IMG/VR virus record: IMGVR_UViG_3300043172_000799
Coordinates: 92,944 to 156,943 of that record
Direction: 5' to 3' (one strand)
DNA: 64,000 nucleotides
Source: a virus
Taxonomy: Duplodnaviria > Heunggongvirae > Uroviricota > Caudoviricetes
Shown: piece after piece, positions 9,852-46,960 of the stretch
How the letters are laid out: every line of letters begins with the position of its first letter
How positions within the stretch are numbered: position 1 is the first letter of the stretch
Notes under the pieces: generated by a model
What the model was told of the DNA's origin: nothing
What the model saw: the letters and a program-made list of their open reading frames with translations, nothing else
Databases searched by the model: none
Program-made: the position numbers and the translations under genes

Positions 9852-9880
9852 CTATTCCTCCAAATATTCAATCTACAATA

Positions 9881-9909
9881 AACATAACACATCACGCATC
9901 ATTTGTCAA
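9881..9909 (-). promoter_or_regulatory. putative promoter (TTGACA-17-TATGTT)
   Basis: Minus strand TTGACA 9909..9904. Followed by GGAGG RBS and ATG at 9851. Confidence 0.35.
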
Positions 9910-9923
9910 TATACAAAATAAAA

Positions 9924-9973
9924 AAGTCAGAGTCCAATATGCTTATGAGACAAAGCACATCTTCTTCTGACTT
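9924..9973 (-). terminator. imperfect 9-bp stem with large loop followed by T-run (weak terminator candidate)
   Basis: 'aagtcagag' ... 'cttctgactt', then a T-run on the minus strand at 9924..9910 (outside the stem span). Confidence 0.3.
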
Positions 9974-12793: not shown

Positions 12794-13329
12794 ATCCTAG
12801 TTTCTCCTCTGCTCTTTTTATACGAAAATTCATTATGAAGTTCTTCCTCAGCGTTTTGTCTTGCTTTTATAGCATCTTCTTTATGTGCAAATAACCCTAG
12901 CTCTTTTCTTTTATCATCTTTGTTTATATACGCTCTCCATTTCTTAGTCAATTTATGCCAAGATACACCTACATGTTTAGAAGTATTATTAGATTGAATT
13001 TCTTTATTCATTTGGTTTTGACCATTGGTTGCAGAACGTAAATTAATCTTTCTATTATTAAGCCCATCACCGTCTCTATGCTCTGGAATAAACCCTTTCT
13101 CTACAGTGTGAATTACTTGGTGCATTTTTATACGAGTTTTATTAAAGTTCCCCTTAGTACGGGCTACAGCGTAAAATAACTTCTTTGAGGTGGTGGGCAC
13201 TCTATACCAACAGTAGTCTTTTACTTTAAAATAATCTTCTTTGTCAATGATTGTAAATCCATGGTCTTTATTGAAGAAGAATATTTTAATATAGCCATCA
13301 TAGACTTCTATGTTATTTACTTTAGACAT
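12781..13329 (-). CDS. HNH-AP2 homing endonuclease paralogue (short form lacking the N-terminal Cys domain)
   Basis: 'YIKIFFFNKDHGFTIIDKEDYFKVKDYCWY', HNH 'EHRDGDGLNNRKINLRSATNGQNQMN', AP2 'VGVSWHKLTKKWRAYINKDDKRKELGLF'. Confidence 0.75.
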   Translation of the reverse strand: MSKVNNIEVYDGYIKIFFFNKDHGFTIIDKEDYFKVKDYCWYRVPTTSKKLFYAVARTKGNFNKTRIKMHQVIHTVEKGFIPEHRDGDGLNNRKINLRSATNGQNQMNKEIQSNNTSKHVGVSWHKLTKKWRAYINKDDKRKELGLFAHKEDAIKARQNAEEELHNEFSYKKSRGETRICQQ

Positions 13330-21950: not shown

Positions 21951-22865
21951 CTATATATTCTCATAAATTGCTAAAAGCAAACTCGGCAGTGGTGTATCAT
22001 ACATTTCCGTTTTAAAACTGTCCAGTATCAATGCACTATTTTTATCTCCGGTATTCAACAAAACTTTTGCATGGTAATTAAGAACCACTCTGCGAATACC
22101 TTCTACCTCACTAGCGGATACATTCTGTAATAGTTTGGTAATTGTGCTCCATTTTGTAGAAGAGCTATACAATGCCTTTGATAATTCATAGCCAATACCT
22201 TTCTCAGCTTCCTCTAGGCTACTTATTAGTTTAAGTTGTGTTTCACTATCATCTATCCCCACAAGTAGTTGTAGAGAGCTAATACAATCGCGTGGAATAG
22301 AATTGTTAATCTTACATATCTCAGTCAGTACTTTTCTTTCTACCGTTAAACTTTCTTCTTTACATATGTATACCAAATGATCTCGCATTGATTTCATATC
22401 AGGAGCTTTAAATTCTATCTTGGTAAATCTACTTTTAATGTTAGCAGGGATCTTCTTAAACTCTGTTGTACAAAGGATGAAAAACACATTCTCTGGTGGC
22501 TCCTCTGTAGCTTTTAATAGTGCATCAAAGAATGCCGAAGATGCTTTCTGAATTTCATCTAAGATAATAAGTTTATTTTTGTACCCTAGTGGTATCTGAT
22601 GAATATTATTAGCTATTTCTTTTGATTTAGCTACTCCGTTATCTACCGCAGAAGAGATTTCTTCAATGTAACAATCAGGGATATTAGAACCCATAACTCT
22701 AGCCATGGAAGTTTTTCCTAAACCGTGGATACCATAAAAAAGATAGGTATGATCTATGTTGCCAGATTCAATATCCTTCTTCAGTTTATTAAGATGTGCA
22801 AGATCTCCTATCGTTTCATCAAGTGATTTAAATCTATATTTATTATATAATTTAGTATTACTCAC
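21951..22865 (-). CDS. clamp-loader AAA+ ATPase (DnaX/HolB-like)
   Basis: 'YRFKSLDETIGD' matches yRP..fdd.vGQ. Walker A 'GIHGLGKTSMAR'. Walker B 'LIILDEIQ'. 'ALLKATEEPPENVFFILCTTEFKKIPANIKSRFTKIEF' matches 'ALLKTLEEPP...F.lATT....ip.TI.SRC'. Confidence 0.75.
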   Translation of the reverse strand: MSNTKLYNKYRFKSLDETIGDLAHLNKLKKDIESGNIDHTYLFYGIHGLGKTSMARVMGSNIPDCYIEEISSAVDNGVAKSKEIANNIHQIPLGYKNKLIILDEIQKASSAFFDALLKATEEPPENVFFILCTTEFKKIPANIKSRFTKIEFKAPDMKSMRDHLVYICKEESLTVERKVLTEICKINNSIPRDCISSLQLLVGIDDSETQLKLISSLEEAEKGIGYELSKALYSSSTKWSTITKLLQNVSASEVEGIRRVVLNYHAKVLLNTGDKNSALILDSFKTEMYDTPLPSLLLAIYENI

Positions 22866-23628
22866 GTACTACCCCTCTACTAGCATCTAGTGAAAAATCC
22901 TTTTGGTATCTCTGCTCTGCATCTTTACGTGCCTTTATTGCATCAGATTTATTTTTAAACAGTTTTCTCAACACTCTCTTTCCCCCAACAGATAAACAGG
23001 ACTCCCATTTATTCTGCTTAATATTCCAACTAATCCCCTTTACTCCAGAAGTATTTCTCTTGCTTACCTTTGTATTCATACTATTTTGGCTACTTGAGGC
23101 TGTCCTCATATTTAGCTTCCTATTGTTCAAACCATCGCCATCTTTATGTTCTGGGATGATTCCTTCCTTAGTAGGAAGTATTATGGAATGCATATATACA
23201 CTTGAAGAGTAGTGCTTCCCTTTTGCATTTGCTATACTGTAGAAAACCCCACCAATACCCACAGTCCTACACCAACAATAGTCTTTTACTTTGATGTAAT
23301 CTTCCTTGTCCACAAGAGTACATCCATGCTCCCTATTGAAGAAAAATATTTTAATGTACTCACCACAATCTTCTATGCTATTTACCTTGGAGTTTGTTGT
23401 GGATGCTGTTTCCTTTTGCAAACACCCACAACTTTTTGTCAATCCAGACACTAGTTTGGTTCGCTTCACTGTGGTTATAGTAGCATTGAGGCAACTACAC
23501 CTACACCAGTATTTCCACTGTGAAGGGGGTACATCTTTATCATCTTTAACTTTACTATCTTCATCAACCTCAATTATGTGTAACCTTCCAAATCTCATTT
23601 CTTTTTCTAGATATTTAGAATATCTCAT
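22858..23628 (-). CDS. free-standing HNH-AP2 homing endonuclease
   Basis: Same architecture as 4511..5269: 'CRCSCL...SCGC'. HNH 'EHKDGDGLNNRKLNMRTASSSQN'. AP2 'SGVKGISWNIKQNKWESCLSVGGKRVL'. Confidence 0.8.
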   Translation of the reverse strand: MRYSKYLEKEMRFGRLHIIEVDEDSKVKDDKDVPPSQWKYWCRCSCLNATITTVKRTKLVSGLTKSCGCLQKETASTTNSKVNSIEDCGEYIKIFFFNREHGCTLVDKEDYIKVKDYCWCRTVGIGGVFYSIANAKGKHYSSSVYMHSIILPTKEGIIPEHKDGDGLNNRKLNMRTASSSQNSMNTKVSKRNTSGVKGISWNIKQNKWESCLSVGGKRVLRKLFKNKSDAIKARKDAEQRYQKDFSLDASRGVVRE

Positions 23629-23927
23629 TGGATTTTCTCCATTAAAGTCATAACTGTACCATCCTCTAGGAAGATTAGTCCTACAATAGTTTTAGCAGTT
23701 ATGCGTTCTAGTTCTCTAATCTCTTGAATTATATCAGATTTTAATACTATACAATTTTCGGCTGACCCCGAATATCCATTTTTCCAAAAAAAATCACCAG
23801 AAACTTCAGCATTCTCTACACTTGTGTTCATGATATCGGAGGGAGCTTTAACCTCCTCTTCGATCACTTCTTCTACCGAAGGAGGTTGTCTTCCAAGTTC
23901 CTTACTCGTTTTATATTTATCAACCAT
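23625..23927 (-). CDS. hypothetical protein
   Basis: 100-aa ORF. Confidence 0.3.
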   Translation of the reverse strand: MVDKYKTSKELGRQPPSVEEVIEEEVKAPSDIMNTSVENAEVSGDFFWKNGYSGSAENCIVLKSDIIQEIRELERITAKTIVGLIFLEDGTVMTLMEKIQ

Positions 23928-25206
23928 TATCTTTTATCCAATCCTCTATTGTGATTTTCTCATATTCTTCCTTAGATATTTCCCGTTTTACAAATACTTT
24001 TTTTGCACGTGGAGCACTATCATAAAAATCAAATATCATATCGTCATATTTCACTTCCAATTCCAAAATAACAGAATTAGCGTCATTACTATGAGGAAGC
24101 ACAGAAGGTGCAATCTCACCATATATCCCAGAAGAATATCTACCATAGTACCCTCTCATGACTGCCTCTATCTCTTCTCCTACTACATACTCAAAATCAG
24201 ATTGCCAATAGGAGATTAGCTTAGAGCCTTTCTTCTTTACATTTTTATACATCTTAAAGGAATCTAATTTTTGAATAGGGTGGATAATATCTTCTTCATC
24301 ATCCTTTGCTACGTACACCATTTTCATGTAATTACTACCAGCAATAATGAATGCCATTTCTCCAATTTTGTATACCTTAGAAGGGGTAGGGCACAAATCT
24401 TTATATATTTTGATTTGATAATCTTCCTCATCTATTGCACTACTATCAACCATATTTGCACCATCATTTCTACTACTACCAAACAAAATGACATCATTCT
24501 CTGGATACCCTGCTATACACAAATACTTTCCTTCCTTAAATGGGAGTATTTTTATGGTAGAAATAAAATCCATAACGTTAACTTCATTGAACTCACTATA
24601 TCCTTTCTTTTCCCATTCTTCTTTCAAATTGATACCATACATTCCTTGGATATGGTTTTCTACATCCTCTATACATGTAAGATTTAGAAAAGATGTTTTA
24701 AGAGCAATCTTTATCATTTCTCTCCTAGAGATGTGAAACCCCTTCTCTTTGTATTTATGAATTCTAAGAAGAGATCCTATGGGGTACATATTAGTACCGG
24801 AATAAATTAACTTCCTGCCTATTATATCTCTATGAAATCTAGGATCAAATACAAACTCCTCCGTTTCAAAATCAAATCCTGCCATACAAATGGTAAAGTC
24901 AAATGATTCAAATATTTCCTCCAGAGAATTGAAGTATTTAAATAAGATAAGATTACGAGGGATGGTAAACCCTACAATTATCATAGAGCGCTTTGTGTAA
25001 GATATTACTGCTTGTCCCTCATTGCATATGTAAAAATTGAAGGCATCTCCCTTTGATCTAAAGTAAAGATCAAAATCTTTTATTTCTGTGCCGGAGAAGA
25101 GAGATAGTATTGCTCCTCCGGCTAAGAATGCTTTCATTTTTTTTAACTCGTTGTATGTTACTTCTCCCATTAAAGAGATTAGTTTTTCTTTTTCATATTT
25201 GTACAT
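23920..25206 (-). CDS. CCA-adding enzyme / poly(A) polymerase-family nucleotidyltransferase-like protein
   Basis: 'GGAILSLFSGTEIKDFDL' matches the class II CCA-enzyme head motif 'GGAVRDLLLGRPPKDIDL' residue for residue in spacing. 'DFTICMAGFD' matches 'RRDFTINA'. 'DPRFHRDIIGRKLIYSG' matches 'DPfgGl.DL..k.iR.vG'. The RR of motif B is replaced by 'ES'. Confidence 0.55.
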   Translation of the reverse strand: MYKYEKEKLISLMGEVTYNELKKMKAFLAGGAILSLFSGTEIKDFDLYFRSKGDAFNFYICNEGQAVISYTKRSMIIVGFTIPRNLILFKYFNSLEEIFESFDFTICMAGFDFETEEFVFDPRFHRDIIGRKLIYSGTNMYPIGSLLRIHKYKEKGFHISRREMIKIALKTSFLNLTCIEDVENHIQGMYGINLKEEWEKKGYSEFNEVNVMDFISTIKILPFKEGKYLCIAGYPENDVILFGSSRNDGANMVDSSAIDEEDYQIKIYKDLCPTPSKVYKIGEMAFIIAGSNYMKMVYVAKDDEEDIIHPIQKLDSFKMYKNVKKKGSKLISYWQSDFEYVVGEEIEAVMRGYYGRYSSGIYGEIAPSVLPHSNDANSVILELEVKYDDMIFDFYDSAPRAKKVFVKREISKEEYEKITIEDWIKDNG

Positions 25207-27932: not shown

Positions 27933-28721
27933 TTATTCTCCTTTTCCTCTACTGTTATCAAAAGAGTGTTTGTTGAAGTACCTCTCTTCTGCTTCTTTTC
28001 TAACTTTAATAGCATCTTTTTTATATATAAAGGAACCTAAGTGTTTCCGTCCGGCACCCATACCTATACGAGCTATCCACCTCTTTTGTTTGTCATTCCA
28101 TACAACACCGGCAATTCCAGAGGTGTTATTTGACATCAAGGCTCTGTTCATATTGTTTTGGCTTCTTGTAGTAGGTCTTAGATTCCTGTTAATATTATTT
28201 AGACCATTTCCATCTTTATGATCAGGCATGTGTCCTTTCTCTGATGGGCATAGTATTTGATGCATCATAATAGTCTTCTTACCATAAAACTTTTGTTGAT
28301 CTATTGGGATGTTAGCAACAGCATAATATGTATTTGCCTTTGCTACTCTAAACCAGCAGATGCTTTTCACTTTATCATAATTTTCTTTATCTATAATAGC
28401 GTAATCATCACAGTTGAAGAAATAAATTTTAATGTAAGCACCACAATCTTCTGCAATGTTTATTTTGTGATTCTTAATGTGAGTTTTTCGTACAGCTTCC
28501 TTTTGTAGACAGCCACAACTCTTAGTTTTATTTCCTACCAAGTCTGCTCTTCTAATAGATCTTATACTCCCACTGGGACATGAGCATTTACATGAGTACT
28601 TCCAATCAGAAGGGCAGATATTTGCCTCGCCATTAATCTTACTATCCTCATCCACCTCAATAATGGTAAGTCTCCCAAATTCCATTCCTGCTTCTAAGTA
28701 CTTAGGATACTTTGCCATCAA
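27933..28721 (-). CDS. free-standing HNH-AP2 homing endonuclease
   Basis: 'CKCSCPSGS...SCGC'. HNH 'DHKDGNGLNNINRNLRPTTRSQNNMN'. AP2 'SGIAGVVWNDKQKRWIARIGMGAGRKHLGSF'. Confidence 0.8.
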   Translation of the reverse strand: MMAKYPKYLEAGMEFGRLTIIEVDEDSKINGEANICPSDWKYSCKCSCPSGSIRSIRRADLVGNKTKSCGCLQKEAVRKTHIKNHKINIAEDCGAYIKIYFFNCDDYAIIDKENYDKVKSICWFRVAKANTYYAVANIPIDQQKFYGKKTIMMHQILCPSEKGHMPDHKDGNGLNNINRNLRPTTRSQNNMNRALMSNNTSGIAGVVWNDKQKRWIARIGMGAGRKHLGSFIYKKDAIKVRKEAEERYFNKHSFDNSRGKGE

Positions 28722-29830
28722 ATAGCCTTTATCAACTTCTCTGAGGGGAAGTCCTCATAGTATTCCGCTACAGTCCCCACACTTCCATCTAGCCATTTAA
28801 AAGCAAGATCTTTATATGGTGTACCTACAACTAAGGTAGCAAATCTTTTTCTATTTGCTAATTCCTTATCAGAAAAGCTCTTAAGATATTTCAAGAATCC
28901 TTCTGCTTCTGCCATGTACAGATCATACTTATCCTTTACAGATGCCAAAACATTTTTGTATTCAGGAAAGTAAGTAAGCACCTCAGCCATCTCATTCTTT
29001 CTTATGATATCCAAAGCTCTCTTTTCTGTAAAGATCCCCTCTCCCCTCATATGGTGCAAATGAACGTATACTTCACCTTTAATCTTAATTCGATTGAAAT
29101 ATTTATCACAAACTACAATACCTTCTTTATCAGTCCCAAAATCTTGTACCAGATCTATACAATCCTCAAGATTGGCTAGATCATATTCTTGCAGACTACT
29201 CACTATAGCACTTATGGCAAGATGGTTCTTCTCTTCCCCTGTTTTATTGTCCTTGGAAGAAAGATAGAATATCTTTGGAGAATCATATCGTACCACCACT
29301 CTGTTAGAGGGAGTACACAATTCAAAGATATGCGTTTCATCTTCAAGATCATTAAGGAAGCTGAAATTCTGTACATTGTAATTAACCATTAAGGTATTGA
29401 TGAACAGTGCTCCAAAACTGTCAATAGGAATTCCTTCATCATTGAAAGTAAGTTCCTGAAGCCCTGCATTAAATCCATTTATTGTCCCATTGGTAGCAAT
29501 GAACCATCCACCATTTATACAGTATAGTTTTATGATGCTTCCATCTTCCTTAGAAGTAGCTCGTGCAGATTTCCAATCAATTTCTGGAACGTAACTCTCA
29601 CCATAATTTCCAAACTTATGAAAGGGATGACATACTATTTCCCAAGTACCTTCCCGAAGGATAATTCCTCTACATTCTCGCACTAATGGCTTGTGAAAAT
29701 CTGATTTAATTTGGTTATACTTAAATATGACTAATCCGTTATCTTTCTTAACCTTTATAGCATAATCTCTTTCTAAAAGCTCCTCATAGTTCTCTGGATG
29801 CTCTTTACAAAACTCTTGTATTTTTAACAT
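28718..29830 (-). CDS. rnlA: RNA ligase 1 (T4 RnlA-like)
   Basis: 'VRECRGIILRE' matches T4 Rnl1 'ALECRGIMFEM'. Motif I 'TSKEDGSIIKLY' matches 'TKEDGSLVS'. Confidence 0.8.
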   Translation of the reverse strand: MLKIQEFCKEHPENYEELLERDYAIKVKKDNGLVIFKYNQIKSDFHKPLVRECRGIILREGTWEIVCHPFHKFGNYGESYVPEIDWKSARATSKEDGSIIKLYCINGGWFIATNGTINGFNAGLQELTFNDEGIPIDSFGALFINTLMVNYNVQNFSFLNDLEDETHIFELCTPSNRVVVRYDSPKIFYLSSKDNKTGEEKNHLAISAIVSSLQEYDLANLEDCIDLVQDFGTDKEGIVVCDKYFNRIKIKGEVYVHLHHMRGEGIFTEKRALDIIRKNEMAEVLTYFPEYKNVLASVKDKYDLYMAEAEGFLKYLKSFSDKELANRKRFATLVVGTPYKDLAFKWLDGSVGTVAEYYEDFPSEKLIKAI

Positions 29831-30132: not shown

Positions 30133-31014
30133 TTAAAATTCAGTGTGGTAAATTCTATCATCAATATTAAATACGGTAAGTCCCATACTTTTCCATTCTC
30201 TGACCATAATCGGACGATCATCAAATACACCACACACAACAAAGCCCTTTCTGGCAACATGCTGGTCAAATAATTCCCGTTTAATAATAGCATCTTTCCT
30301 ACTGTCACCTTTGGCTCGCATGTATAATCCCTCGTATGGGATGATATAATCATCTAACCACTTTTCAGTAAGTTCTCGGCAAGAGCTATCTCTCCCAGAC
30401 ATAATGTAGATCGTATTTCCGGTTCTATGTAGTAGTCTCAAAATTAGAGCTACATCTACCCTTAACTTATCTTCTCCTACCCGATCCCACATAAAAGGTT
30501 TTCTACCATTCATTTGAGCAAGGGAGCCATCCAAATCAAAAATATAAAGTTGATTTAAATTTCCATCTCTGGGGTCTGCCTGATGCTTTTTGTTTTCCCT
30601 AACATCAAAATGTCTCATCCAAGTATTTTGAATGATACTAGCACCAAGACTATTCTCACGCTTAAGATCGTTCTCAATACATTTTTCCAAAGGCACATCT
30701 AGAAAACTTTTAATTTCAAATTCCACAGCCGGATAGTACCCTTTAATTACTGCCTTTCTCTCTTTGATTTTTTCCATACTTAAATTCATGGAATCAATAA
30801 TTGCATTCTTCCCACTATCCAAAATAGATAGAATCATTTCCTTCTCAACCTTGGAGATGAACTTCTCATTTTTGGCATTAAAATGAATATTATCAAACAT
30901 CAGCCGGAGATCGTCCCTGCATACTCGTTTCCAATTAGGGTCTTGAGCACGTTTCTTAGCATACGTACTCTTCCCTGATCCTTGAATACCACGCATAAAT
31001 AATACTTTACTCAC
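30133..31014 (-). CDS. pnk: polynucleotide 5'-kinase / 3'-phosphatase (T4 Pnk-like)
   Basis: N-terminal P-loop 'FMRGIQGSGKSTYAKK'. C-terminal HAD phosphatase 'LYIFDLDGSLAQMNGR...IMSGRDS...KGDSRKDAIIKRELF...VFDDRP' is collinear with T4 Pnk 'VIFDVDGTLAKMNGR...VVSGRES...QGDTRKDDVVKEEIF...AIDDRT'. Confidence 0.85.
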   Translation of the reverse strand: MSKVLFMRGIQGSGKSTYAKKRAQDPNWKRVCRDDLRLMFDNIHFNAKNEKFISKVEKEMILSILDSGKNAIIDSMNLSMEKIKERKAVIKGYYPAVEFEIKSFLDVPLEKCIENDLKRENSLGASIIQNTWMRHFDVRENKKHQADPRDGNLNQLYIFDLDGSLAQMNGRKPFMWDRVGEDKLRVDVALILRLLHRTGNTIYIMSGRDSSCRELTEKWLDDYIIPYEGLYMRAKGDSRKDAIIKRELFDQHVARKGFVVCGVFDDRPIMVREWKSMGLTVFNIDDRIYHTEF

Positions 31015-33371: not shown

Positions 33372-33941
33372 TTATTTTCCATAAGCCAGCCTTGGATACA
33401 GCATTCCTATCTTTGACTGTAAACCGGCTATGGTTGAATCATTGTAAATAACACTGTCAGGAACGATACTGTCTATTTCCATTTCAGAGGAATGTGTATC
33501 GATAGAGATAAGTCCCTCTCGTTCCAGTTTAATAATATGTCCTCCCATAGATTTAATGGTGTTGGCTTCATTTAAGAATCTAACATCAGATATAACTACA
33601 TTTGGCTTCTCTGTAAAAGAATCATACCAGTACTGAAATCTTTTTACCCAGATATCGGACCCTATCAATTCCTTGAATAATGGTAATATCTCTTGTAGCC
33701 TTTGCCTGAATAATTCTGTGCCCATAGCTTGTTGTGCCTGTCTGGGAGAGATATTCCATCTAGGGTCAATTGTCTCTTTATATTTTCCATTAACCCATTC
33801 ATCATCCCAAAGGAAGATTTCTGCCACTGATGTTTTAATTGGATCTGCAAATTTGTATCTGGTAAATCCAAATTGATCTATCAAATAATCTGCTACCTCA
33901 TCTTTCCCTGATCTTTTTTTTCCTACTATTCCTAGTATCAT
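33372..33941 (-). CDS. deoxynucleoside monophosphate kinase (T4 gp1-like)
   Basis: 'MILGIVGKKRSGKDEVADYL...YKFADPIKTSVAEIF' matches T4 gp1 'LIFLSGVKRSGKDTTADFI...YQLAGPIKDALAYAW'. Confidence 0.75.
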   Translation of the reverse strand: MILGIVGKKRSGKDEVADYLIDQFGFTRYKFADPIKTSVAEIFLWDDEWVNGKYKETIDPRWNISPRQAQQAMGTELFRQRLQEILPLFKELIGSDIWVKRFQYWYDSFTEKPNVVISDVRFLNEANTIKSMGGHIIKLEREGLISIDTHSSEMEIDSIVPDSVIYNDSTIAGLQSKIGMLYPRLAYGK

Positions 33942-34933
33942 TCCATAACCACCTTATCCAAATAATTCATAAACCACATTCGTGCTTTCACACTCATGGC
34001 TTTCCCTACATCTTTAGGCTCCAAACCATTCTCATTTAATACATCCATTTCTTCCATAATAATATCTCTGTTAACCCACTTAAGGAAATCACTCATCATC
34101 TGGATTCTGGGTGTTTCAGATGCAGAAGTGAAAACCTGTTCAATAGCCTGATTCAATCTGTTCTCTGTGACTGCATATTCCACAAACTCATTGACTGAAT
34201 TCATCTTTTCAATGTCCACAGGAGCTACTGTCTTAACTTTAGATGCCGAGTGCTTCTCCCCCTTAGTTTTAAAAATATGATCTCTGTGTCCATTCTCATC
34301 ATAGTGTGACCACACAATCCCTTCCCCAATACCATGTGCATCAAAATGCTTTGAGAAAGGACATTCCTCCTCCACTTCATCCACTAACTTAATCATTTCT
34401 GCCTGTGCAATCTGTGAATAGTTAAAATCAATCTCCAGTTCATATGTGAGGAAATCAAAGATATTATACACATCAAGATCCTCATTCATAAAATCAGGCT
34501 GTGTGTAGAAATGATCTGCTTCATCTTCAATTCCTGTATATTTGATTGCAAAGACCACAAATCGTTTAGAGAGATGATTTAAAGCAACTCCTGTCTGGAT
34601 ATTTCCACCACACCATTCTCCGAAGATAGTGGTGATATATCCATCTTTATGTAGATAATCAAATATTTTATACCAAAAATCTTTTCTATTGCTGGCAAAG
34701 AAAGCAAATCCTGCATTATCTTTCTCTGGAGTAATTATATTCTTTCTACTCTGATACCAAATTCCATCTGCCGGTGTATGGCATATCCCTGCATTCGTTC
34801 CGTGGAGCTTAATTGCCCCTTCAAAAGTTAGCGTAGGGTGTGTAGCTCTAACCTCTCCTTCTGGCACATGGCATACATTTCTAATGATGTGCCGGTACTG
34901 TCCTATTTTTGTAAAACTAATAAATTTTTTCAT
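33938..34933 (-). CDS. RNA ligase 2 (T4 Rnl2-like)
   Basis: Motif I 'AIKLHGTNAGI' matches Rnl2 'EKIHGTNFSL'. 'IFGEWCGGNIQ' matches 'VFGEFAGPGIQ'. Motif V 'IFKTKGEKH'. 331 aa, similar in length to T4 Rnl2. Confidence 0.8.
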   Translation of the reverse strand: MKKFISFTKIGQYRHIIRNVCHVPEGEVRATHPTLTFEGAIKLHGTNAGICHTPADGIWYQSRKNIITPEKDNAGFAFFASNRKDFWYKIFDYLHKDGYITTIFGEWCGGNIQTGVALNHLSKRFVVFAIKYTGIEDEADHFYTQPDFMNEDLDVYNIFDFLTYELEIDFNYSQIAQAEMIKLVDEVEEECPFSKHFDAHGIGEGIVWSHYDENGHRDHIFKTKGEKHSASKVKTVAPVDIEKMNSVNEFVEYAVTENRLNQAIEQVFTSASETPRIQMMSDFLKWVNRDIIMEEMDVLNENGLEPKDVGKAMSVKARMWFMNYLDKVVME

Positions 34934-36448: not shown

Positions 36449-37174
36449 TTACTCCTCCATATCACAATTAACCAAATTATCTATAACATTTGGTTCTTTT
36501 GAAAATATAGGTGCTTCATTTAAAAACTCCCATCCATTCTCAGTCTTTACACAGAAATTTCCATTCTTCCATTTATCTTTGTAGTCTTCCCATGTAATTT
36601 GGTGCTCATCCCACAACATCTGTTTGATGTCATTAGTATTCTTTTTATGCATTTTACTATGAGAGAACACAGATTGTCCTGCAAGCTGAATGGAATTCCT
36701 TTTCCAATCCATACTTCTCCACACAAAATAATTATTCACTTCTTCACGGGGAATGTTGAATACTCTGCTATCGAAATAAGCAGTCTTTGAGGAATTATAT
36801 ATACTGCTGTAGTAATGATTAAACTCCGCAGTAGCAATAGAAGCAGAGACACTACACATCTTCTGTATACCATAATCAAACCATGCATCCGTTGTAAGTT
36901 TGTCATAATCTGTGATTAGAATGGAAATTTCATCTGATTGCATATATGCACATTTAGCTCCCTGAATTTCTTCACAAAGCTTGATGGTGGTTGCTCTCAT
37001 CATAGCATTTAAATTTTCATCGAACGGTCTATCCATACCTTTTGTAATAGAATGAAAGCACTTCCCATCTAAGCGACAGATAACTGGTGTTCTCCTAGTT
37101 AAATACGTTCTAGCTCTCTTTTCATAATTATCTTTCATTCTATCTGCAATTTGTGTTTTATCCATCGACCTCAA
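36449..37174 (-). CDS. Thg1-like protein (tRNA-His guanylyltransferase family, 3'-5' nucleotide addition)
   Basis: 'RTPVICRLDGKCFHSITKGMDRPFDENLNAMMRATTIKL...AYMQSDEISILI' is collinear with Thg1 'IVVRIDGKKFHEF...KPNDENALKLMNACA...AFGESDEYSFIL'. Confidence 0.75.
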   Translation of the reverse strand: MRSMDKTQIADRMKDNYEKRARTYLTRRTPVICRLDGKCFHSITKGMDRPFDENLNAMMRATTIKLCEEIQGAKCAYMQSDEISILITDYDKLTTDAWFDYGIQKMCSVSASIATAEFNHYYSSIYNSSKTAYFDSRVFNIPREEVNNYFVWRSMDWKRNSIQLAGQSVFSHSKMHKKNTNDIKQMLWDEHQITWEDYKDKWKNGNFCVKTENGWEFLNEAPIFSKEPNVIDNLVNCDMEE

Positions 37175-37478
37175 ACTCCTTTTTTAATTCTGAATACTCA
37201 AATCTTCTCTTTTCTTTTTCTCGATCTTCCCTTATCTGCGCATTCTTCATTCTGCTTTCATATTCTGTATCAGTTTCAAGACGTTTGCCCCACAGTTGTA
37301 AATTAGAGCTATCCCAACTATCTTCAGTATTTACGTAAATGGAGTTAATCTTTCCGGCATGTTTATTTAGGATGGTGTCACAGTATTCCTTTATCTCTTC
37401 TAATGTTTTACCATCTAATTCAGAGGTAAAATCCCCTGATAGCATTACTGCTGTCTGTAGTCTAGGCATTACATCCAC
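37158..37478 (-). CDS. hypothetical protein
   Basis: 106-aa ORF. Confidence 0.3.
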   Translation of the reverse strand: MDVMPRLQTAVMLSGDFTSELDGKTLEEIKEYCDTILNKHAGKINSIYVNTEDSWDSSNLQLWGKRLETDTEYESRMKNAQIREDREKEKRRFEYSELKKEFEVDG

Positions 37479-38557: not shown

Positions 38558-39103
38558 TTATTTATCCTCTAACATATTTCTGGCATTATTTAGTTCCTCA
38601 GCAGTATGAGGTGTACCTGTTCCGTTCAAACTTAAATAAAGCTCAATAGCTTCTTTCTCGGACTTAACTTTAAGCATATGTACTCTAAAATCTACACAAC
38701 CCCTAATCTCATACTCATCTGCAAATCTCCCAAAAACTTTTATTTCATGTTTGAGAAATCTACGTACAGCCGTTGTTCTCTGTAATCCATCAATTAAATA
38801 TAGTTTAACATGGAAGTCTTTATTACTACCAAACTCATTGAAATATTGCTCTGCTATAATAACTTCTGTAGCTGAACCACCCTGTAAGGGGGCTGTAAAG
38901 CAGTACTCAATGTAGGCAATTTGCTGTTCCTCTGTCCAAACGTGACCTCTTTGCCATTCTGGTACAATATATTCTACATAAGATTTGTCTTCTTTTTCAA
39001 AAGCAAAGCTAGTAGAATCATCTTCAAACTTCCATCTAAAGGAACACCCATTCCACGTCCAATTTAAGTTGGGTTGAAGATCTCTCACATTTATCTTACC
39101 CAT
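38558..39103 (-). CDS. DUF262 / ParB-like nuclease-domain protein (GmrSD N-terminal domain family)
   Basis: 'EWQRGHVWTEEQQIAYIEYCF' and 'LIDGLQRTTAV' match the two DUF262 signature blocks (QR..vW...q...LI.S and DGQQR). Confidence 0.55.
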   Translation of the reverse strand: MGKINVRDLQPNLNWTWNGCSFRWKFEDDSTSFAFEKEDKSYVEYIVPEWQRGHVWTEEQQIAYIEYCFTAPLQGGSATEVIIAEQYFNEFGSNKDFHVKLYLIDGLQRTTAVRRFLKHEIKVFGRFADEYEIRGCVDFRVHMLKVKSEKEAIELYLSLNGTGTPHTAEELNNARNMLEDK

Positions 39104-39370: not shown

Positions 39371-40231
39371 CTACATCTCTTCACTTATCAGCCTCTCCTT
39401 GCTGTACTTCCACAACACTTTAACTGGATACTCGCCCTGAAGAGTTCCAGGTAGTGGGATCATAGCATTCTTGTTTACAACTACCTCATAACTCTTTTCC
39501 TTAGTAATGACCTTCTCATCTGTTCTTTCTATTGGATACATATCTTTAGCTTTTGGGCTATTACACAAACATGTCCACAATATTCCCAGTCCCTCATTGC
39601 AAATTTTATACGGATCAAAATCCAAAGTATTTCTGTCCAGCAATAAATGAAATCCAGATTTTGTATCTATCCAGAAATATCTGAGTTTGGTTCTTTCTAA
39701 ATATTCCTCTAACAATTCTGGAGCATTAAAATCGTCTGGCACATCAAAATCAATATCAAGCCAATGCTTTGTACCTCTATTTCTTTGGTAACAATTCATT
39801 AGCTCCACATCTAGTTTATTGAACTTATCTTTGAAGCTGATTGCATTATTACTAGACAATTCGTATTGCCAATCATTCACCTTCCGATTAAACTCTTGTA
39901 AAGACTTCAATGAATTACTGGGATTAATATTAAAGTAAATCACCATACATTTAGCAGGAATAGGTAGCGCATTCTTTGATAAATACCCTCCTTCAGCTAC
40001 TTCATACTTTCTAATTGTTCTTAGAAATCTAGTCCATTCCCGTTTTCTCACAATAGCTCTACCAAACATCTCAGCTCTAGTGATGTGAAATTTCTCTCTT
40101 TCTTCTGCATTTAAGTATTTCTTCCTACAAGAAAGTGAGAGGAAGAACACTTCAAAATCTTTCAATTCAGGAACTATTTTAGTATAAAATTTAAACAGCT
40201 CCTCTTCATCGTAAATAAAACTATAGTTCAT
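39371..40231 (-). CDS. hypothetical protein; weak archaeo-eukaryotic primase (AEP)-like motifs
   Basis: 'HWLDIDFD' (hhhDhD) followed by 'TKSGFHLLL' (sGxxHhh) and 'LDFD', in AEP order. Fold not established. Confidence 0.3.
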   Translation of the reverse strand: MNYSFIYDEEELFKFYTKIVPELKDFEVFFLSLSCRKKYLNAEEREKFHITRAEMFGRAIVRKREWTRFLRTIRKYEVAEGGYLSKNALPIPAKCMVIYFNINPSNSLKSLQEFNRKVNDWQYELSSNNAISFKDKFNKLDVELMNCYQRNRGTKHWLDIDFDVPDDFNAPELLEEYLERTKLRYFWIDTKSGFHLLLDRNTLDFDPYKICNEGLGILWTCLCNSPKAKDMYPIERTDEKVITKEKSYEVVVNKNAMIPLPGTLQGEYPVKVLWKYSKERLISEEM

Positions 40232-40240
40232 TTTCTCCCC

Positions 40241-40717
40241 CTAATCAAACCATGTGCTTTTGATATTATTGTCAACAATGAACTTAGAGAATACCTCAAA
40301 ACCTTTCCATGTATCAATATGGTAGGTATCAATAAAGAAGTCTTCGGGATTAGTTTCTAATAATTTATTTTCCCGAATTTTGCAAATTTTATCTAAATCC
40401 TTTAAGGGAGTTCCTTGCTCAAGTAATTCATCCAAGTATTTCATTATAGCTTTATTAGAGCCTCTAGTCTCAGAAGGGGAAATGTTACAGCCATGTCCAT
40501 CAGCTCTTATTTCTAGTGCTTTTTCTACACTATTAAACAGCTTCAGAGCTTTAGTCACAGGCATCTGCCCGTAGATTACCATGTAATAGTTCTGGAAATG
40601 TGCTGTAAAACCGTTTAAGGCATATACATCAATAGATGAACCTATTGGCATATAGTAGTGTTTCTTCCAACCACTAGCTTTCATTAATGTTTTAAATGTA
40701 TATGTGTCTTTTCTCAT
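40241..40717 (-). CDS. hypothetical protein
   Basis: 158-aa ORF, ATGA-coupled to the HD hydrolase gene. Confidence 0.35.
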   Translation of the reverse strand: MRKDTYTFKTLMKASGWKKHYYMPIGSSIDVYALNGFTAHFQNYYMVIYGQMPVTKALKLFNSVEKALEIRADGHGCNISPSETRGSNKAIMKYLDELLEQGTPLKDLDKICKIRENKLLETNPEDFFIDTYHIDTWKGFEVFSKFIVDNNIKSTWFD

Positions 40718-41292
40718 TTTGTCATCCTTATATCCATGTAGTCTACGTCAATCCTGTATCTCTCAGCTAGCCAATTCACATGAGAAGCAATCCGATATGC
40801 AAACAGTTTATGAATGTGATCAGGATTATGCCCAATTCTATTCTGGTATACAGAAGAAATTAAAGCTTCTGTATCTATTACATACTTTGTGATAAACTTC
40901 AAAGGGATTCCATTCATTTCTAGAAACTGTACATTATGAAGTCTATCCACTAACTTAATTGTGAGAGCATCATCAGACATTCTCATCATTTTATCATATA
41001 AATATTCCAGTTTGGTTATTCCTTTGGGAATGATGGAAGTAAGTTCATCAACTAAGTTTCCCACTTTACTTCCAAATTCTTTATGGATCATTTCAGAAGT
41101 GATGTCAGTGTCTTCCACTACATCATGGAGCAATCCTGAAGCAACCAAGACGGGATCTTTCGTGAAATCTTCTAATATTCTAGCTACGAATTTAGGATGA
41201 ATAAAGTAAGGTAATTCCACCCATTTTCTTTCCTGTCCTTCGTGTGCTTCCTGAGCAAATGTGTATGCTCTATTTACCAAATTTTTTAACAT
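40714..41292 (-). CDS. HD-domain small alarmone ((p)ppGpp) hydrolase, RelA/SpoT-type
   Basis: 'FAQEAHEGQERKWVELPYFIHPKFVARIL...VASGLLHDVVEDTDITSEMIHKEFGSKVGNLVDELT' matches the SpoT/Mesh1 HD hydrolase consensus 'A..aH.GQ.Rk.G.PYi.Hpl.VA.iL......aALLHDvvEDT..t.eei...FG..Va.lV'. Confidence 0.75.
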   Translation of the reverse strand: MLKNLVNRAYTFAQEAHEGQERKWVELPYFIHPKFVARILEDFTKDPVLVASGLLHDVVEDTDITSEMIHKEFGSKVGNLVDELTSIIPKGITKLEYLYDKMMRMSDDALTIKLVDRLHNVQFLEMNGIPLKFITKYVIDTEALISSVYQNRIGHNPDHIHKLFAYRIASHVNWLAERYRIDVDYMDIRMTK

Positions 41293-41326: not shown

Positions 41327-41911
41327 TCAAAATTCCCTCACTATAATCTCATATATTTCTTTCCAGTTATCTACTCTCTGCATACCATTAATTACCGCAG
41401 GATAATCCTTATTATGCCCCTGATTAAATAATATCCTTCTTCCATTAAACTCTTCCATATTTAATGGTCTATCGTCTACTATAAAATCCCCAGACACCAG
41501 ACTTTTATTAGTTCCAAAGAAGAAGTTCCTACTATCCAAGAATGGAAAATGACGTTCAAGCCACTTAACTTTATATGGTGCAATATCCCAGTTCCCTGAT
41601 ATAGAGGATACTACGAATATTTCCACCATCTTTTCCAAATACCCAACAATTTCTATAGCATCATCCATTGGCAACATATTATCCCACAGAGTTGTTACTA
41701 CTCCATATCTGTTTTCTTCTGGCTTCAAATAAGTGTAGATAGTATTCCCACATTTAGGTTTGGTGAACTTAGCTATATCCCAATCTGTGATTATCTTAGT
41801 ATCCAAGTTATCATCCCAGACATTGTTGTATACTGCTATCCATGGGGTAAGTAAATCTCCCAATGTATCATCGAGATCCAAGATCAATCTTTTTCTTTTC
41901 ATCCATCCCAC
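41327..41911 (-). CDS. HAD-family 5'(3')-deoxyribonucleotidase-like phosphatase
   Basis: Motif I 'LILDLDDTL'. Motif IV-like 'FIVDDRP'. Confidence 0.45.
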   Translation of the reverse strand: MGWMKRKRLILDLDDTLGDLLTPWIAVYNNVWDDNLDTKIITDWDIAKFTKPKCGNTIYTYLKPEENRYGVVTTLWDNMLPMDDAIEIVGYLEKMVEIFVVSSISGNWDIAPYKVKWLERHFPFLDSRNFFFGTNKSLVSGDFIVDDRPLNMEEFNGRRILFNQGHNKDYPAVINGMQRVDNWKEIYEIIVREF

Positions 41912-42363
41912 TCCACTAATGTAATTTCAATATCAGGTGTTACCTCATTGATTATCTCTTTGATTTTATTCCAATTCCCACCGGCTAATCCAGCACCTAT
42001 TTTAGGTATCCCAACTACGTCTCCTCTAAAGTCATAATTAATAGTGGTAAATACTTCTCGTATAGCCATATAGTCAACTGGCTTTTCACCTCTATAGTCA
42101 TATTGTGTATAGGCATTGATTACTAGAAGATTCCCAACTGTCCCTAAATAATTAGTAAAAGCACAAGTATACGTCCCAAGTTTGTCTTTATCTCCTTTTT
42201 TTGAGTCCTTATCAATCTGGTAAGCATCTGGAAAATTTCTCTTAATTCCAAAGGCAATTCCCTTGCCCATTGTGCAAAAGCAATTACTCCCATGTACAAT
42301 GATATCAAAATTTCCCTGTTTCGCCAATTTTATTAAATCACCCTTTATTACTTTAGTTATCAC
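41899..42363 (-). CDS. macro-domain protein (ADP-ribose binding/processing)
   Basis: 'FDIIVHGSNCFCTMGKGIAFGI' matches 'VNAAN..L..GgGVa.AI'. 'GIPKIGAGLAGGNW' matches the macro 'iafPaIsTGiyG.p' block. Confidence 0.65.
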   Translation of the reverse strand: MITKVIKGDLIKLAKQGNFDIIVHGSNCFCTMGKGIAFGIKRNFPDAYQIDKDSKKGDKDKLGTYTCAFTNYLGTVGNLLVINAYTQYDYRGEKPVDYMAIREVFTTINYDFRGDVVGIPKIGAGLAGGNWNKIKEIINEVTPDIEITLVEWDG

Positions 42364-42974: not shown

Positions 42975-43358
42975 CTACAGTAATTTATACTCACTAGTCA
43001 TATCCTTTACAAGAATACTTCTATAGGGACCAATGGCTATGCATGTCACAGTTGGTATTCCATGAAACTCTGTCTTGCCACAGTCAGTTATGATGGCATA
43101 TGGTATATCTAATCTCTTGGCTCTTTCTGCTAAAGAGTGGATATCAGACTCGGAATCACATCCCAATACTATTTTGGTAAAGATACCATTAATCCACTCC
43201 TTCTGCTCAGGAGTGACTGATATTATTAAGCAGTCATCTTCTAGCCAATTACCCTGATCTAAAATTACCTTCATGGAAGCATGTGCTACCTGAGATGCTA
43301 TTTTACCTTTTCTCATTTTAAGATCTTTTCTTACCACTATGGTCTGTTGTGTTAGCAT
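42975..43358 (-). CDS. peptidyl-tRNA hydrolase, PTH2 family
   Basis: 'QTIVVRKDLKMRKGKIASQVAHAS...GIFTKIVLGCDSESDIHSLAERAKRLDIPYAIITDCGKTEFHGIPTVTCIAIGP' is collinear with PTH2 '[25 protein letters not shown]...KVVLKV.dee.L..l...A...gLp..li.DAGrTqi..gs.TVLgiGP'. Confidence 0.85.
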   Translation of the reverse strand: MLTQQTIVVRKDLKMRKGKIASQVAHASMKVILDQGNWLEDDCLIISVTPEQKEWINGIFTKIVLGCDSESDIHSLAERAKRLDIPYAIITDCGKTEFHGIPTVTCIAIGPYRSILVKDMTSEYKLL

Positions 43359-44164: not shown

Positions 44165-46960
44165 TTATGCACTTTCTTCATAGTCCCATTCATATCCGTA
44201 ACTCCTTATCAATTCTGCCTCTTTCTTTTCATCATCCCAATCTTTATCAGCATAAATATGATCATACCAATTCCCATTATCATAGTATTCTACATCCGCT
44301 TTCATGGTATGTATAACCCATCTGTGTTTCTTCATTAGATATGTAGTCATATAATAAACAACTTTCTCACGCAAACCCTTCCCTATCCATTCAGATAGAT
44401 CTTCTGGTGTATCAAAGTATATAGCATCATGAATCTGGGCTACTATTTTTGTCTTTAACTTGTTTTTATCTATATATTCTTGTATTTTAGTTTGTGCCTG
44501 AAGAATAAGATGAAAAGCAGGTCCTTGTATCACGTAATTGTTACACTGATTTCTATTCATAACTGTAGTTGAATAGAAGCCTGTTGCTAATTTTGTTCTC
44601 ATATTTTTTACATAATTTTTCCAGTTATCTTTTCTCCATTGTCCAAACTCTCCATAATTATCCTCCCAGTACCAATCACACACAGTTTTTATATGCTCTG
44701 TAAATTTCTTTTCTGTATCTATTTTAGACTCTTTGAAATATTGTTTGTGGTATTCCTGTAGATGTTTATTGTACACTGTTGGACCTATACTGAGATATAT
44801 ATCTCCAAATTGTAATGAAAAGGACATACCATTTTTACCTATATACCTAAGATCTTTCCACATATGAGCTTCCGTGTCATTTTTAGCATCATAATTTCCC
44901 ATTTCTTTTTTAATCTCTATCATGTCTTTAGATACTTGAGACAATTCCCCCATAAACAATTTTTCAGCTAAGCCAAGATGCATATCTAATCCTTCCTCTA
45001 ATTGTTTGAGCATGGTTTTATCATGATGTACAGAACACCCTACACCCACTTCTAAACTACTTGCATCTGCTCCTATGATTCTGTTTCCTTCTGAAGACAT
45101 TAAGAAAGACTTTGACATCTCTGCTGCAAATGGATCATGTTGACTTTGATTCTGCCAGTTTGGATTTTGAGAAGATCCTCTATAACTTTTTGGTATATTC
45201 AAAGAGAACATAGGGTATATGTGCCCTTCTACCATTTCTCTTCTAACACCTTTCAAATCTTGTGTTAATTTTATCAATTTAGCAAGCTCCAAGTACATTT
45301 TCAAAAACTCAGATAACGGAGCTATGTCTTTTAGCTCTTTAGCTTCTGTTGAATATTGATCCCCTCCTGTTTTTTTTGTTTTAGGTAATCTCAAAATATT
45401 AAAAAGAAAATCCGACAATTGTTTGCCAGAACTATAGTTGAACTCTGTATCTCTATTCTCATACCACTTATCAATTTCTGGACAATTTTTAATATTGTAT
45501 TGCAATTTGACTATTTTCTTTTCTAATATCATTTCATTTTTTATCAATCTTTCTTCATCTATTCTAAACCCATTCTCCATCATTCTACAAAAAGATAACA
45601 TACCATCATGAAATAAGTGAAAACCCTTCATCAAATGTGGATCACCTTCTATTTGTGGCCTCTGCCATTCATAAAGATGATATGTAAAATGGCTATCTTT
45701 TGCACAATATAAACACATATCCTTTAAATCCATAAGATGCATTGTATTGAAGCCATTTGCACCATATAATGCTTTCTCTTCTTTTGTAGATTTAATATAA
45801 CTATCTGCCATACTATCATATCCTAGAATTCCAAATCTCATATATGTCTGTACTTTTAAACCTGTGATATTAGATCTATTATCCAAAATGTGAGAAACTA
45901 GCATTGTGTCCCATACAAAGTTTTCAGATCTGTATCCAAATATGGAAATACTAGCTTGATACTCATATGCCATATTGTGTGATATTTTTCCAACCCTATT
46001 AGATTGAAGCAATCTCTTTAGATTATCCATAAATGGTTTGTTGTCATAGAATATAGGAAAACCATAAGATACAATACCATTACTAAAGGACACACAATAT
46101 ATTTTATGTCCTTTTTTTTGTAATTTTATACCACTTGCCTCATAGTCAAAAGATACTAAACTTTCCTTTTGCATACATTTCAGAACATGAGTAGCATCCT
46201 CCTCATGCATTACGGTACAACACTCTGACTCATATGTATCTTTTCTAAATTCTTTTTTTGATAATATATTTTTTAAATATTTTATAAAGAATTTTTCCTT
46301 TAATATAAAATCATCATACTCACATAATTTTTCATTCTTCCATAAAACAATTTTATCATCAGAACTTTTCCATTTCCCCCATTTTTTCAAGGAGTCTCTT
46401 CTTTTTTTAAGAGGCTGGAGTACAAAATTAATGTCATAATTTGGCATAACTAGCTTATGCAATTCTTGATCTGGTATTATAGTTCCATAGAACTTTTCTG
46501 TAGGTTTAAGGCTCATCCTTCCATTACATCTATCCCCTAAAAGAATCTCTAAAGGAAGTTCTCCTAGTGTTATTATTTTTTTAGGATTTAATTGCTTGAT
46601 TGTTTTATGCAATTTGTATTTGCAACTATTTATAATCTGAGTACTAGGTCCTCCCCAGTCCTCAGAAAAACATCTCACAGAAGGCACATACCAGCAATCT
46701 CTTTCTAAGTCAATATTAATTTTCTGTAAAGCATGTTTTAAATATTTCCCTTGTATATTACTTAAAAGTTTTCCAGATTGGTCTTCCCTTTCACTTGGAG
46801 GTGCTCCCACAATTAAGATGGATTTATCTCCGTTACCTACCACTCCTAGTTTTGGATTTTGGCAGTCCATATAAGCTTTACAACTTTCACAGCCTCCAAT
46901 TTTCTTTTTATTAACTTTCTTTCTAACTATTTCTTTTTCTATTTCAAAGAATCCTCGCAT
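44165..46960 (-). CDS. family A DNA polymerase with N-terminal family-4 UDG-like domain
   Basis: N-terminus 'GCESCKAYMDC...ILIVGAPPSEREDQSGKLL...SVRCF...IITLGELPLEIL' fits the UDG family 4 layout (GCxxC...GEAPGxxED..G.pF...N.vkCrPP). Motif A-like 'GADASSLEVGVGCSVHHD'. Motif B-like 'RYIGKNGMSFSLQFG'. Motif C 'VAQIHDAIYFD'. Confidence 0.8.
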   Translation of the reverse strand: MRGFFEIEKEIVRKKVNKKKIGGCESCKAYMDCQNPKLGVVGNGDKSILIVGAPPSEREDQSGKLLSNIQGKYLKHALQKINIDLERDCWYVPSVRCFSEDWGGPSTQIINSCKYKLHKTIKQLNPKKIITLGELPLEILLGDRCNGRMSLKPTEKFYGTIIPDQELHKLVMPNYDINFVLQPLKKRRDSLKKWGKWKSSDDKIVLWKNEKLCEYDDFILKEKFFIKYLKNILSKKEFRKDTYESECCTVMHEEDATHVLKCMQKESLVSFDYEASGIKLQKKGHKIYCVSFSNGIVSYGFPIFYDNKPFMDNLKRLLQSNRVGKISHNMAYEYQASISIFGYRSENFVWDTMLVSHILDNRSNITGLKVQTYMRFGILGYDSMADSYIKSTKEEKALYGANGFNTMHLMDLKDMCLYCAKDSHFTYHLYEWQRPQIEGDPHLMKGFHLFHDGMLSFCRMMENGFRIDEERLIKNEMILEKKIVKLQYNIKNCPEIDKWYENRDTEFNYSSGKQLSDFLFNILRLPKTKKTGGDQYSTEAKELKDIAPLSEFLKMYLELAKLIKLTQDLKGVRREMVEGHIYPMFSLNIPKSYRGSSQNPNWQNQSQHDPFAAEMSKSFLMSSEGNRIIGADASSLEVGVGCSVHHDKTMLKQLEEGLDMHLGLAEKLFMGELSQVSKDMIEIKKEMGNYDAKNDTEAHMWKDLRYIGKNGMSFSLQFGDIYLSIGPTVYNKHLQEYHKQYFKESKIDTEKKFTEHIKTVCDWYWEDNYGEFGQWRKDNWKNYVKNMRTKLATGFYSTTVMNRNQCNNYVIQGPAFHLILQAQTKIQEYIDKNKLKTKIVAQIHDAIYFDTPEDLSEWIGKGLREKVVYYMTTYLMKKHRWVIHTMKADVEYYDNGNWYDHIYADKDWDDEKKEAELIRSYGYEWDYEESA

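Follow-up and report, generated by a model that had tools for sequence, protein, structure and literature searches.

This analysis concerns a gene for a Thg1-like protein (TLP) on the minus strand of a 64,000-nucleotide stretch of viral DNA, positions 92,944 to 156,943 of the IMG/VR record IMGVR_UViG_3300043172_000799; the whole stretch is referred to below as the window. The open reading frame (ORF) occupies exactly 36449..37174 and would encode 241 residues if counted from a TTG codon. Judging from the adjacent sequence signals, translation almost certainly begins instead at the ATG at 37165-37163, which gives a coding sequence of 36449..37165 (stop codon at 36451-36449) and a product of 238 residues. 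A Shine-Dalgarno-like AAGGAG box, read from the minus-strand letters at 37176..37181, lies 10 nt upstream of this ATG and only 1 nt from the TTG at 37174, and the ATG is therefore preferred. The ATG overlaps the stop codon of an upstream 106-residue ORF (37158..37478) by 8 nt, and the AAGGAG box falls within the 3' end of that ORF, an arrangement that would fit translational coupling. At the other end, the stop codon of the TLP gene abuts the next ATG, at 36448. The 238-residue product is identical to a protein already called in public assemblies (P0001), which occurs on three contigs, the longest of 168 kb, and bears the JGI name 'tRNA(His) 5'-end guanylyltransferase'.

Identity, active site and subtype

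The first-pass annotation, made from the letters and translations of the window, had read this ORF as a phage-encoded Thg1-like 3'-5' nucleotidyltransferase, and this identity is borne out by profile, sequence and structure comparisons. The search against PF04446 (Thg1) that had been proposed as a check returns a match of 100 bits (E = 1.2e-28), more than three times the gathering cut-off of 29.2 bits, with residues 12-142 aligned to positions 3-130 of the 130-position profile. The protein matches PHROG 4717 ('tRNA-His guanylyltransferase') over its full length (E = 2.2e-84). A sequence search against the PDB aligns residues 8-235 with the TLP of Bacillus thuringiensis (BtTLP, PDB 4kgk; E = 2.4e-52); the next PDB family comes far behind, at E ~4e-7, and structures of eukaryotic Thg1 and archaeal TLP lie between 1e-5 and 1e-7. 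No NCBIfam model matches the protein, a result that we take as uninformative on its identity.

The AlphaFold2 (AF2) model of the protein, built on 38 homologues, has a mean pLDDT of 89.8 and a pTM of 0.88, and contains the predicted two-domain fold of the family, an RRM-like palm followed by a C-terminal helical or fingers region. The best Foldseek matches of the model in the PDB are the BtTLP entries 4kgm and 4kgk (TM 0.85-0.89, 43% identity), and every one of the 32 PDB matches at E<=1e-3 is to a Thg1 or TLP structure, with alignments of 221-259 columns. We regard it as a near certainty that the product of 36449..37174 is a genuine Thg1-like protein. It is an ordinary further member of a well-populated and already annotated family.

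The sequence motifs from which the identity was initially read do occur in the expected collinear order. The literal strings quoted for them (RIDGKKFH, PNDENA and SDEYSF) do not, and are family-consensus paraphrases; the actual motifs are RLDGKCFH (residues 31-38), PFDENL (47-52) and SDEISI (77-82), in the 238-residue numbering that is used throughout.

No loss of the metal-binding carboxylates, one of the two outcomes that would have refuted the first-pass annotation, is seen: D33, D78 and E79 are all intact. In the alignment with 4kgk, the first metal-binding aspartate, D33 (BtTLP D30), lies in the RLDG segment and is encoded at 37067..37069 (minus strand). The second metal-binding aspartate and the third carboxylate, D78 and E79 (BtTLP D75 and E76), form the SDE motif and are encoded by GAT GAA at 36929..36934 (minus strand); the equivalent carboxylates of hThg1 are D29, D76 and E77. 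These three residues are invariant in 38 of 38 homologues, as are E15, R31, F37, K102, R134 and R150; the corresponding residues of BtTLP are E12, R28, D30, F34, D75, E76, K99, R131 and R147. The roles of the BtTLP active-site residues, including those of the sites for NTP activation and transfer, have been described (PMC3701042). Also retained are R19, H38 and D49 (BtTLP R16, H35 and D46). H33 of BtTLP, which touches the nucleotide through its main-chain amide (PMC3701042), is replaced by C36, at a position that is mostly alanine among the 38 relatives. All catalytic residues are likewise retained in the relatives of 61-78% identity on other long contigs. As far as the sequence allows, the phage TLP is apparently catalytically intact, a predicted 3'-5' nucleotidyltransferase.

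Two positions bear on the subtype. The segment aligned to HINNLYN, the anticodon-recognition motif of eukaryotic Thg1 that includes H154 (PMC6471195), reads WKRNSIQ in the phage protein, where Candida albicans Thg1 has CHINNLY. The equivalent of eukaryotic Asn161 (M158 in BtTLP) is L161, and this column holds methionine or leucine in 38 of 38 relatives. These hallmarks of eukaryotic-type Thg1 (HINNLYN and Asn161/N158) were thus not found in the TLP alignment, and since both the motif and the activation-step asparagine are absent, the phage protein is by its sequence a bacterial-type TLP and not Thg1 proper. For the same reason it would be predicted to need a template and to lack specificity for tRNA-His. 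Its membership of this clade is what leads us to expect Watson-Crick template dependence and a preference for truncated tRNA over the addition of G-1 to tRNA-His.

The phage protein is full-length collinear with BtTLP (4KGK/4KGM; 245 residues compared with 238), and shares with it the metal-binding carboxylates, the nucleotidyl-transfer residues and a residue other than asparagine at position 158. The two differ in genomic origin, a bacterial chromosome for BtTLP and a phage here, and by the replacements K43 to R46 and H33 to C36. Identity with the characterised BtTLP clade is 43-48% over the whole length, including the C-terminal domain. Annotated phage TLPs of PHROG 4717 are similarly close: in 151 phage records the identity is 42-48%, with more than 93% of the length aligned; their carriers include the Bacillus phages vB_BmeM-Goe8, Bc431v3 and Bcp1, Stenotrophomonas jumbo phages, and Prevotella, Caulobacter and Mycobacterium phages. 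The published reading of phage TLPs, as sporadic RNA-repair accessories of large phages (PMC7824862), fits the protein described here as well. Unlike these carriers, the present phage is unrelated to any cultured phage, and its nearest TLPs occur only in metagenomes.

Eukaryotic Thg1 (yeast, human and C. albicans; 3OTB, 3WBZ-3WC2, 5XOX) has the PF04446 palm in common with the phage TLP and a similar fold (TM ~0.72-0.75), and by analogy the two would also have in common the two-metal chemistry and the three-step course of 3'-5' addition; however, sequence identity is only 17-21% (E ~1e-5 to 1e-7). Archaeal TLP (5AXK-5AXN, crystallised with tRNA-Phe) has a TM of ~0.72-0.74 and an identity of 22-24% (E = 5.7e-7). 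It is described as carrying out template-dependent and anticodon-independent repair of the 5' end of truncated tRNA (PMC4820378). Bacterial and archaeal TLPs form separate phylogenetic groups (PMC6471195).

Distribution and genomic setting

TLPs are widespread. By tblastn, 164 GenBank phage records contain a TLP gene, which most of them already annotate as tRNA-His guanylyltransferase; phages of Bacillus, Prevotella, Caulobacter, Mycobacterium, Erwinia and Stenotrophomonas are among the carriers. Relatives are encoded on at least 595 contigs of IMG/VR and in no fewer than 577 species genomes of GTDB, and a protein database contains at least 7,999 matches. Among the matches listed, the nearest relatives (61-78% identity) lie on other long metagenomic contigs. 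Bacterial genomes carry no host signal: the best TLP matches are at most ~50% identical and scattered over many phyla.

The phage origin claimed for the DNA is confirmed by tightly packed co-directional genes, many PHROG matches and tail genes on the same contig. At 34% G+C, the window is dense with ORFs (~106), nearly all of which read from the minus strand. A megablast search with its 30-45 kb segment gives no nucleotide match to known phages, and the family A DNA polymerase, which is fused to a UDG-like domain, is at most 24% identical to that of any GenBank phage; on these two grounds the source is, by sequence, a large and very divergent uncultured tailed phage. The polymerase itself (931 residues, 44165..46960, minus strand) consists of a UDG-like N-terminal domain followed by DNA_pol_A_exo1 and DNA_pol_A, and the same architecture adjoins the TLP gene of a relative of 74% identity (P0002).

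From 37478 to 33372 the genes abut or overlap, leaving no gaps, in the order 106-residue ORF, TLP, five small ORFs of unknown function, PF09414 ligase and deoxynucleoside monophosphate (dNMP) kinase. No terminator-like site was found between 33000 and 40500, and promoter-like sites around the TLP gene occur at background frequency only. Co-transcription of the TLP and PF09414 ligase genes is plausible from the sequence, because the co-directional run between them is gap-free and contains no terminator-like site.

The surroundings of the gene were compared with those of 80 other viral TLP loci. Many of these loci come from one sample and the counts are descriptive only; the survey used single-sequence searches, which miss divergent ligases. 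Homologues of the 106-residue ORF, of the five downstream ORFs and of the other neighbours are essentially absent near the other TLPs, and no conserved small partner emerges. At 25 of the 80 loci, a figure inflated by the many contigs from a single sample, the TLP gene has a Pnkp homologue no more than 10 kb away, and at nine of the 80 it has a HAD_SAK gene within that distance. The former recalls the linkage between Thg1 and polynucleotide kinase in bacterial genomes (PMC2904730).

The window encodes several RNA-repair proteins. Four of the companions named in the first-pass annotation (Rnl1, Pnk, Rnl2 and Pth2) are real, by Pfam, PHROG and/or PDB matches. An Rnl1-type RNA ligase at 28718..29830 (minus strand) matches PF09511 (E = 2e-14), T4 Rnl1 (2c5u, E = 2e-11) and phrog_562 (E = 1.3e-49). 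A bifunctional polynucleotide 5'-kinase/3'-phosphatase (Pnkp), encoded at 30133..31014 (minus strand), has a HAD_PNKP domain (E = 2e-37) and a P-loop kinase domain of the AAA_33 type; it matches PDB 4xrp (E = 3e-36), T4 Pnkp (1ltq, E = 7e-25) and phrog_505 (E = 1.6e-74). The ligase of the TLP gene run is an Rnl2-type ATP-dependent RNA ligase (33938..34933, minus strand; PF09414, E = 5e-12; phrog_548 'RNA ligase', E = 2.8e-55), for which the PDB holds no sequence match at E<=1e-3. A Pth2-type peptidyl-tRNA hydrolase is encoded at 42975..43358 (minus strand; PF01981, E = 1.8e-29). The 'Swiss Army Knife' family of RNA-repair HAD phosphatases is represented as well (5266..5850, minus strand; PF18143 HAD_SAK_2, E = 1.4e-20). 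The co-occurrence in the window of Rnl1, Pnkp, PF09414 ligase, Pth2 and HAD_SAK_2 corresponds to the RNA-repair set described for jumbo phages (PMC7824862).

The HAD_SAK_2 gene lies far from the other repair genes. It adjoins an HNH/AP2-like endonuclease gene and stands beside what looks like an SbcCD-like nuclease pair, a label taken from reading the translations, with no database match. An ORF with a weak Macro domain, an RNA-repair-type gene, is found at 41899..42363. A few genes from Macro and Pth2, between an NT5C 5'-nucleotidase (41327..41911) and unknown ORFs, lies the gene for an HD_4 protein of the RelA/SpoT-hydrolase type (192 residues, 40714..41292, minus strand; PF13328, E 1.7e-14; phrog_990). 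This protein resembles small alarmone hydrolases, and might remove (p)ppGpp or pyrophosphate marks set on tRNA 3' ends by toxSAS-type defences.

The 'CCA-like enzyme' of the first-pass annotation is most probably the 428-residue product of 23920..25206 (minus strand), a pol-beta-type nucleotidyltransferase according to its predicted fold, a precomputed PF26128 assignment and a weak match to phrog_1614 ('nucleotidyltransferase'). Of that description, the resemblance to the head and neck of class II enzymes stands at the level of predicted structure; a sequence match to CCA-adding enzymes does not. The AF2 model has a pLDDT of 74 and is confident for residues 1-220. Its N-terminal ~200 residues are predicted to fold as the head and neck of class II CCA/A-adding enzymes, and the top 44 PDB matches in Foldseek are all class II tRNA nucleotidyltransferases (E ~4e-7, TMq ~0.31). 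The C-terminal half is different, beta-rich, partly disordered and partly unmodelled. By eye, GG...DxD and DFTI motifs resemble motifs A and B of class II. The protein has no match in the local Pfam copy, and PF01743 (class II tRNA nucleotidyltransferase) matches none of the ~30 window ORFs scanned against Pfam. A CCA-adding identity by sequence was rejected, since neither the single sequence nor a 19-sequence profile finds a PDB relative, and only the predicted fold makes the connection. A profile search places the protein in a large family, apparently uncharacterised, of which 6,434 cluster representatives are matched at E<=1e-3.

Several other genes of the window deserve mention. Three genes upstream of the TLP gene, a 181-residue protein (38558..39103, minus strand) matches type IV restriction enzymes of the GmrSD kind in their N-terminal DUF262 domain only (PF03235, E 3.6e-12) and lacks a nuclease domain; a homologue lies near the TLP gene at two of the 80 viral loci. 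A 286-residue ORF (39371..40231, minus strand) has no Pfam match and a weak match to phrog_14949, with homologues within 10 kb of the TLP gene on three of the 80 contigs (L026, L027 and L084). Four paralogous HNH-type homing-endonuclease-like ORFs (4511..5269, 12781..13329, 22858..23628 and 27933..28721, all on the minus strand) share N- and C-terminal sequence blocks and are inserted between genes for replication, recombination and RNA ligation. Across the whole window, no match to an Rfam family attains the gathering score; because this search detected no group I intron, the four ORFs are probably free-standing. An overlapping pair of genes (59419..60960 and 60947..61714, minus strand) encodes a 513-residue Ser/Thr-type protein kinase and a PP2C_2-type phosphatase, as judged by precomputed Pfam assignments. 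After a nicotinate phosphoribosyltransferase gene (62627..63793, minus strand) comes an NAD synthase gene (9115..9954 of locus L003), which already lies just beyond the window. Together they resemble a module for NAD+ salvage by the phage, which might serve against defences that deplete NAD. Finally, a DUF8224 protein (PF26675; 680 residues, 54136..56178, minus strand) is kept at 675 residues in a related phage contig (L002).

A putative role in tRNA maintenance

Overall, the observations are best explained by an active TLP that restores 5'-shortened tRNA during infection, a reading that we consider probable. The more specific biological role of the enzyme in tRNA maintenance is about evenly balanced. 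The chemical steps are taken by homology from BtTLP, and the biological role from genomic context and the literature. Characterised TLPs of this type mend 5'-truncated tRNAs by Watson-Crick-templated 3'-5' addition (PMC3061083, PMC4820378, PMC6471195). By analogy, a 5'-shortened tRNA with a 5'-monophosphate would be activated by ATP or GTP at the two-metal site formed by D33 and D78, giving a 5'-5' App- or Gpp-RNA; where the break has left a 5'-OH, the phage Pnkp could make the monophosphate needed. An incoming NTP, chosen for its Watson-Crick match to the 3' strand of the acceptor stem, would then attack the activated 5' end with its 3'-OH. Further rounds would start from the resulting 5'-triphosphate until the stem is complete. 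Acting with Pnkp, the two RNA ligases, Pth2, the HAD phosphatase and the CCA-like nucleotidyltransferase, the TLP would keep the tRNA pool usable against RNases of the host or of competitors.

The first-pass annotation had pictured the gene as completing such a toolkit. The idea is a published hypothesis and not a new one, having been described both for bacterial gene neighbourhoods and for phages. Anantharaman, Iyer and Aravind (2010) reported conserved bacterial Thg1 neighbourhoods with polynucleotide kinase, Macro and RNA ligase genes, and predicted a role in tRNA repair (PMC2904730). For jumbo phages, Iyer et al. (2021) described a set comprising Rnl1/Rnl2, PNK-HAD, the Swiss-army-knife HAD, RlaP and CCA-adding nucleotidyltransferases, Thg1 and PTH2, in which Thg1 is credited with 'restoring nucleotides at the 5' ends', and read the set as a counter to host tRNA-targeting immunity (PMC7824862, section 3.4.9). 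The Pnkp-Rnl1 pathway of phage T4 offers a functional analogue of the TLP, though not a homologue, both being phage-encoded means of tRNA restoration. T4 heals and seals breaks in the anticodon loop and has no TLP, whereas the task of a TLP would be to replace nucleotides lost from the 5' end; the window encodes homologues of both T4 Pnkp and T4 Rnl1, in addition to the Rnl2-type ligase.

Several points weigh against restoration of 5'-shortened tRNA as the role of this gene. To our knowledge, the physiological substrates of bacterial TLPs have not been established, and the literature searched contains no assay of any phage TLP. In the same literature, the tRNases of bacteria and of phage defence attack the anticodon loop, the T-loop or the CCA tail at the 3' end, and none is known to shorten the 5' end. 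The TLP gene is separated from the repair genes of the window by 1.5-7 kb, with small unrelated ORFs and nucleotide-metabolism genes between them. A homologue of either window ligase is found within 10 kb of the TLP gene at only two of the 80 viral loci, and in P0002, the closest relative with usable context (74% identity), the TLP gene adjoins the DNA polymerase gene and no RNA ligase lies within 10 kb. In addition, K43, which positions ATP during the activation step of BtTLP (PMC3701042), is replaced by R46. This replacement appears conservative from the sequences, arginine occurring in 17 and lysine in 21 of the 38 relatives.

The TLP could more narrowly be a dedicated counter-defence protein, directed against undiscovered nucleases that attack the tRNA acceptor stem by trimming or nicking its 5' strand, within an end-to-end tRNA maintenance kit. 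In such a kit, Pnkp and TLP would serve the 5' end, Pnkp with Rnl1 or Rnl2 the anticodon loop, the divergent CCA-like nucleotidyltransferase with the HD_4 hydrolase the 3' end, and Pth2 peptidyl or otherwise blocked tRNA. We hold this proposal only tentatively and think it rather unlikely.

Improbable, too, is a role in tRNA-His maturation, in which G-1 would be added opposite C73 of host or phage tRNA-His that lacks it and so secure histidylation during infection. Bacterial TLPs can add G-1 opposite C73 in vitro, and both the family name and the automatic annotation 'tRNA(His) guanylyltransferase' suggest such an activity. Non-eukaryotic TLPs are capable of it, as exemplified by DdiTLP2 in mitochondria (PMC6471195). 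The HINNLYN motif with which true Thg1 reads the anticodon is absent from the phage protein, however, and most bacteria encode G-1 genomically and do not require its addition (PMC3061083). Moreover, no tRNA gene was found in the window or in two loci that reach ~10 kb past each of its ends (~84 kb of the phage in total). tRNA genes occur near the TLP gene at 17 of the 80 viral loci; tRNA-His genes, within 10 kb, occur at four of them, which would favour a link with tRNA-His. However, they are no commoner there than other isotypes (4 of ~130 tRNAs), and there is no enrichment. A maturation enzyme for phage tRNA-His is therefore not supported, given the lack of tRNA genes in these ~84 kb and of any such enrichment among the 80 loci.

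The enzyme might instead act on RNAs other than tRNA, or perform the first half-reaction only, providing 5'-adenylylated or guanylylated ends for the neighbouring ligase or extending or capping phage transcripts or small RNAs. According to a proposal by Anantharaman et al., Thg1 could aid ligation by making 5'-App ends (PMC2904730), and the TLP and PF09414 ligase genes do lie in one uninterrupted gene run; TLPs also recognise RNA more broadly than Thg1 does (PMC6471195). ATP-dependent ligases, however, adenylylate their own substrates, and the conservation of R31, K102, R134 and R150 extends to the nucleotidyl-transfer site, beyond the activation site that a half-reaction would need. We regard activity of this kind as improbable.

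That the gene is a passenger in decay, or its palm repurposed, for example for nucleotide-signal synthesis as in GGDEF and Cas10 palms, is very improbable: the sporadic distribution among phages (PMC7824862), the variable genomic position among relatives and the weak Foldseek tails that reach GGDEF and Cas10 palms (ranks 33-49) would suit it, but the ORF is complete, closely flanked by its neighbours and preceded by a good ribosome-binding site, no catalytic or NTP-binding residue has been lost, the 43-48% identity with the BtTLP clade extends through the C-terminal domain, and the GGDEF/Cas10 matches reach only E>=0.008 with TM<0.3.

Restoration of 5'-shortened tRNA thus remains the preferred reading. 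The annotation itself adds little, as the protein had already been named by JGI and the family is common in phages and bacteria, and the window makes the question of the natural substrate and of the host nuclease no more testable than the many cultured TLP-bearing phages do. As a compact enzyme of 238 residues, the protein would lend itself readily to biotechnological applications of 3'-5' polymerases (PMC11404450). For phage biology, the retention of an intact TLP together with a full heal-and-seal set suggests that 5'-end tRNA damage occurs in nature. If the proposed counter-defence function were true, phage TLP genes could be used as bait for the missing immune effector that targets the 5' end.

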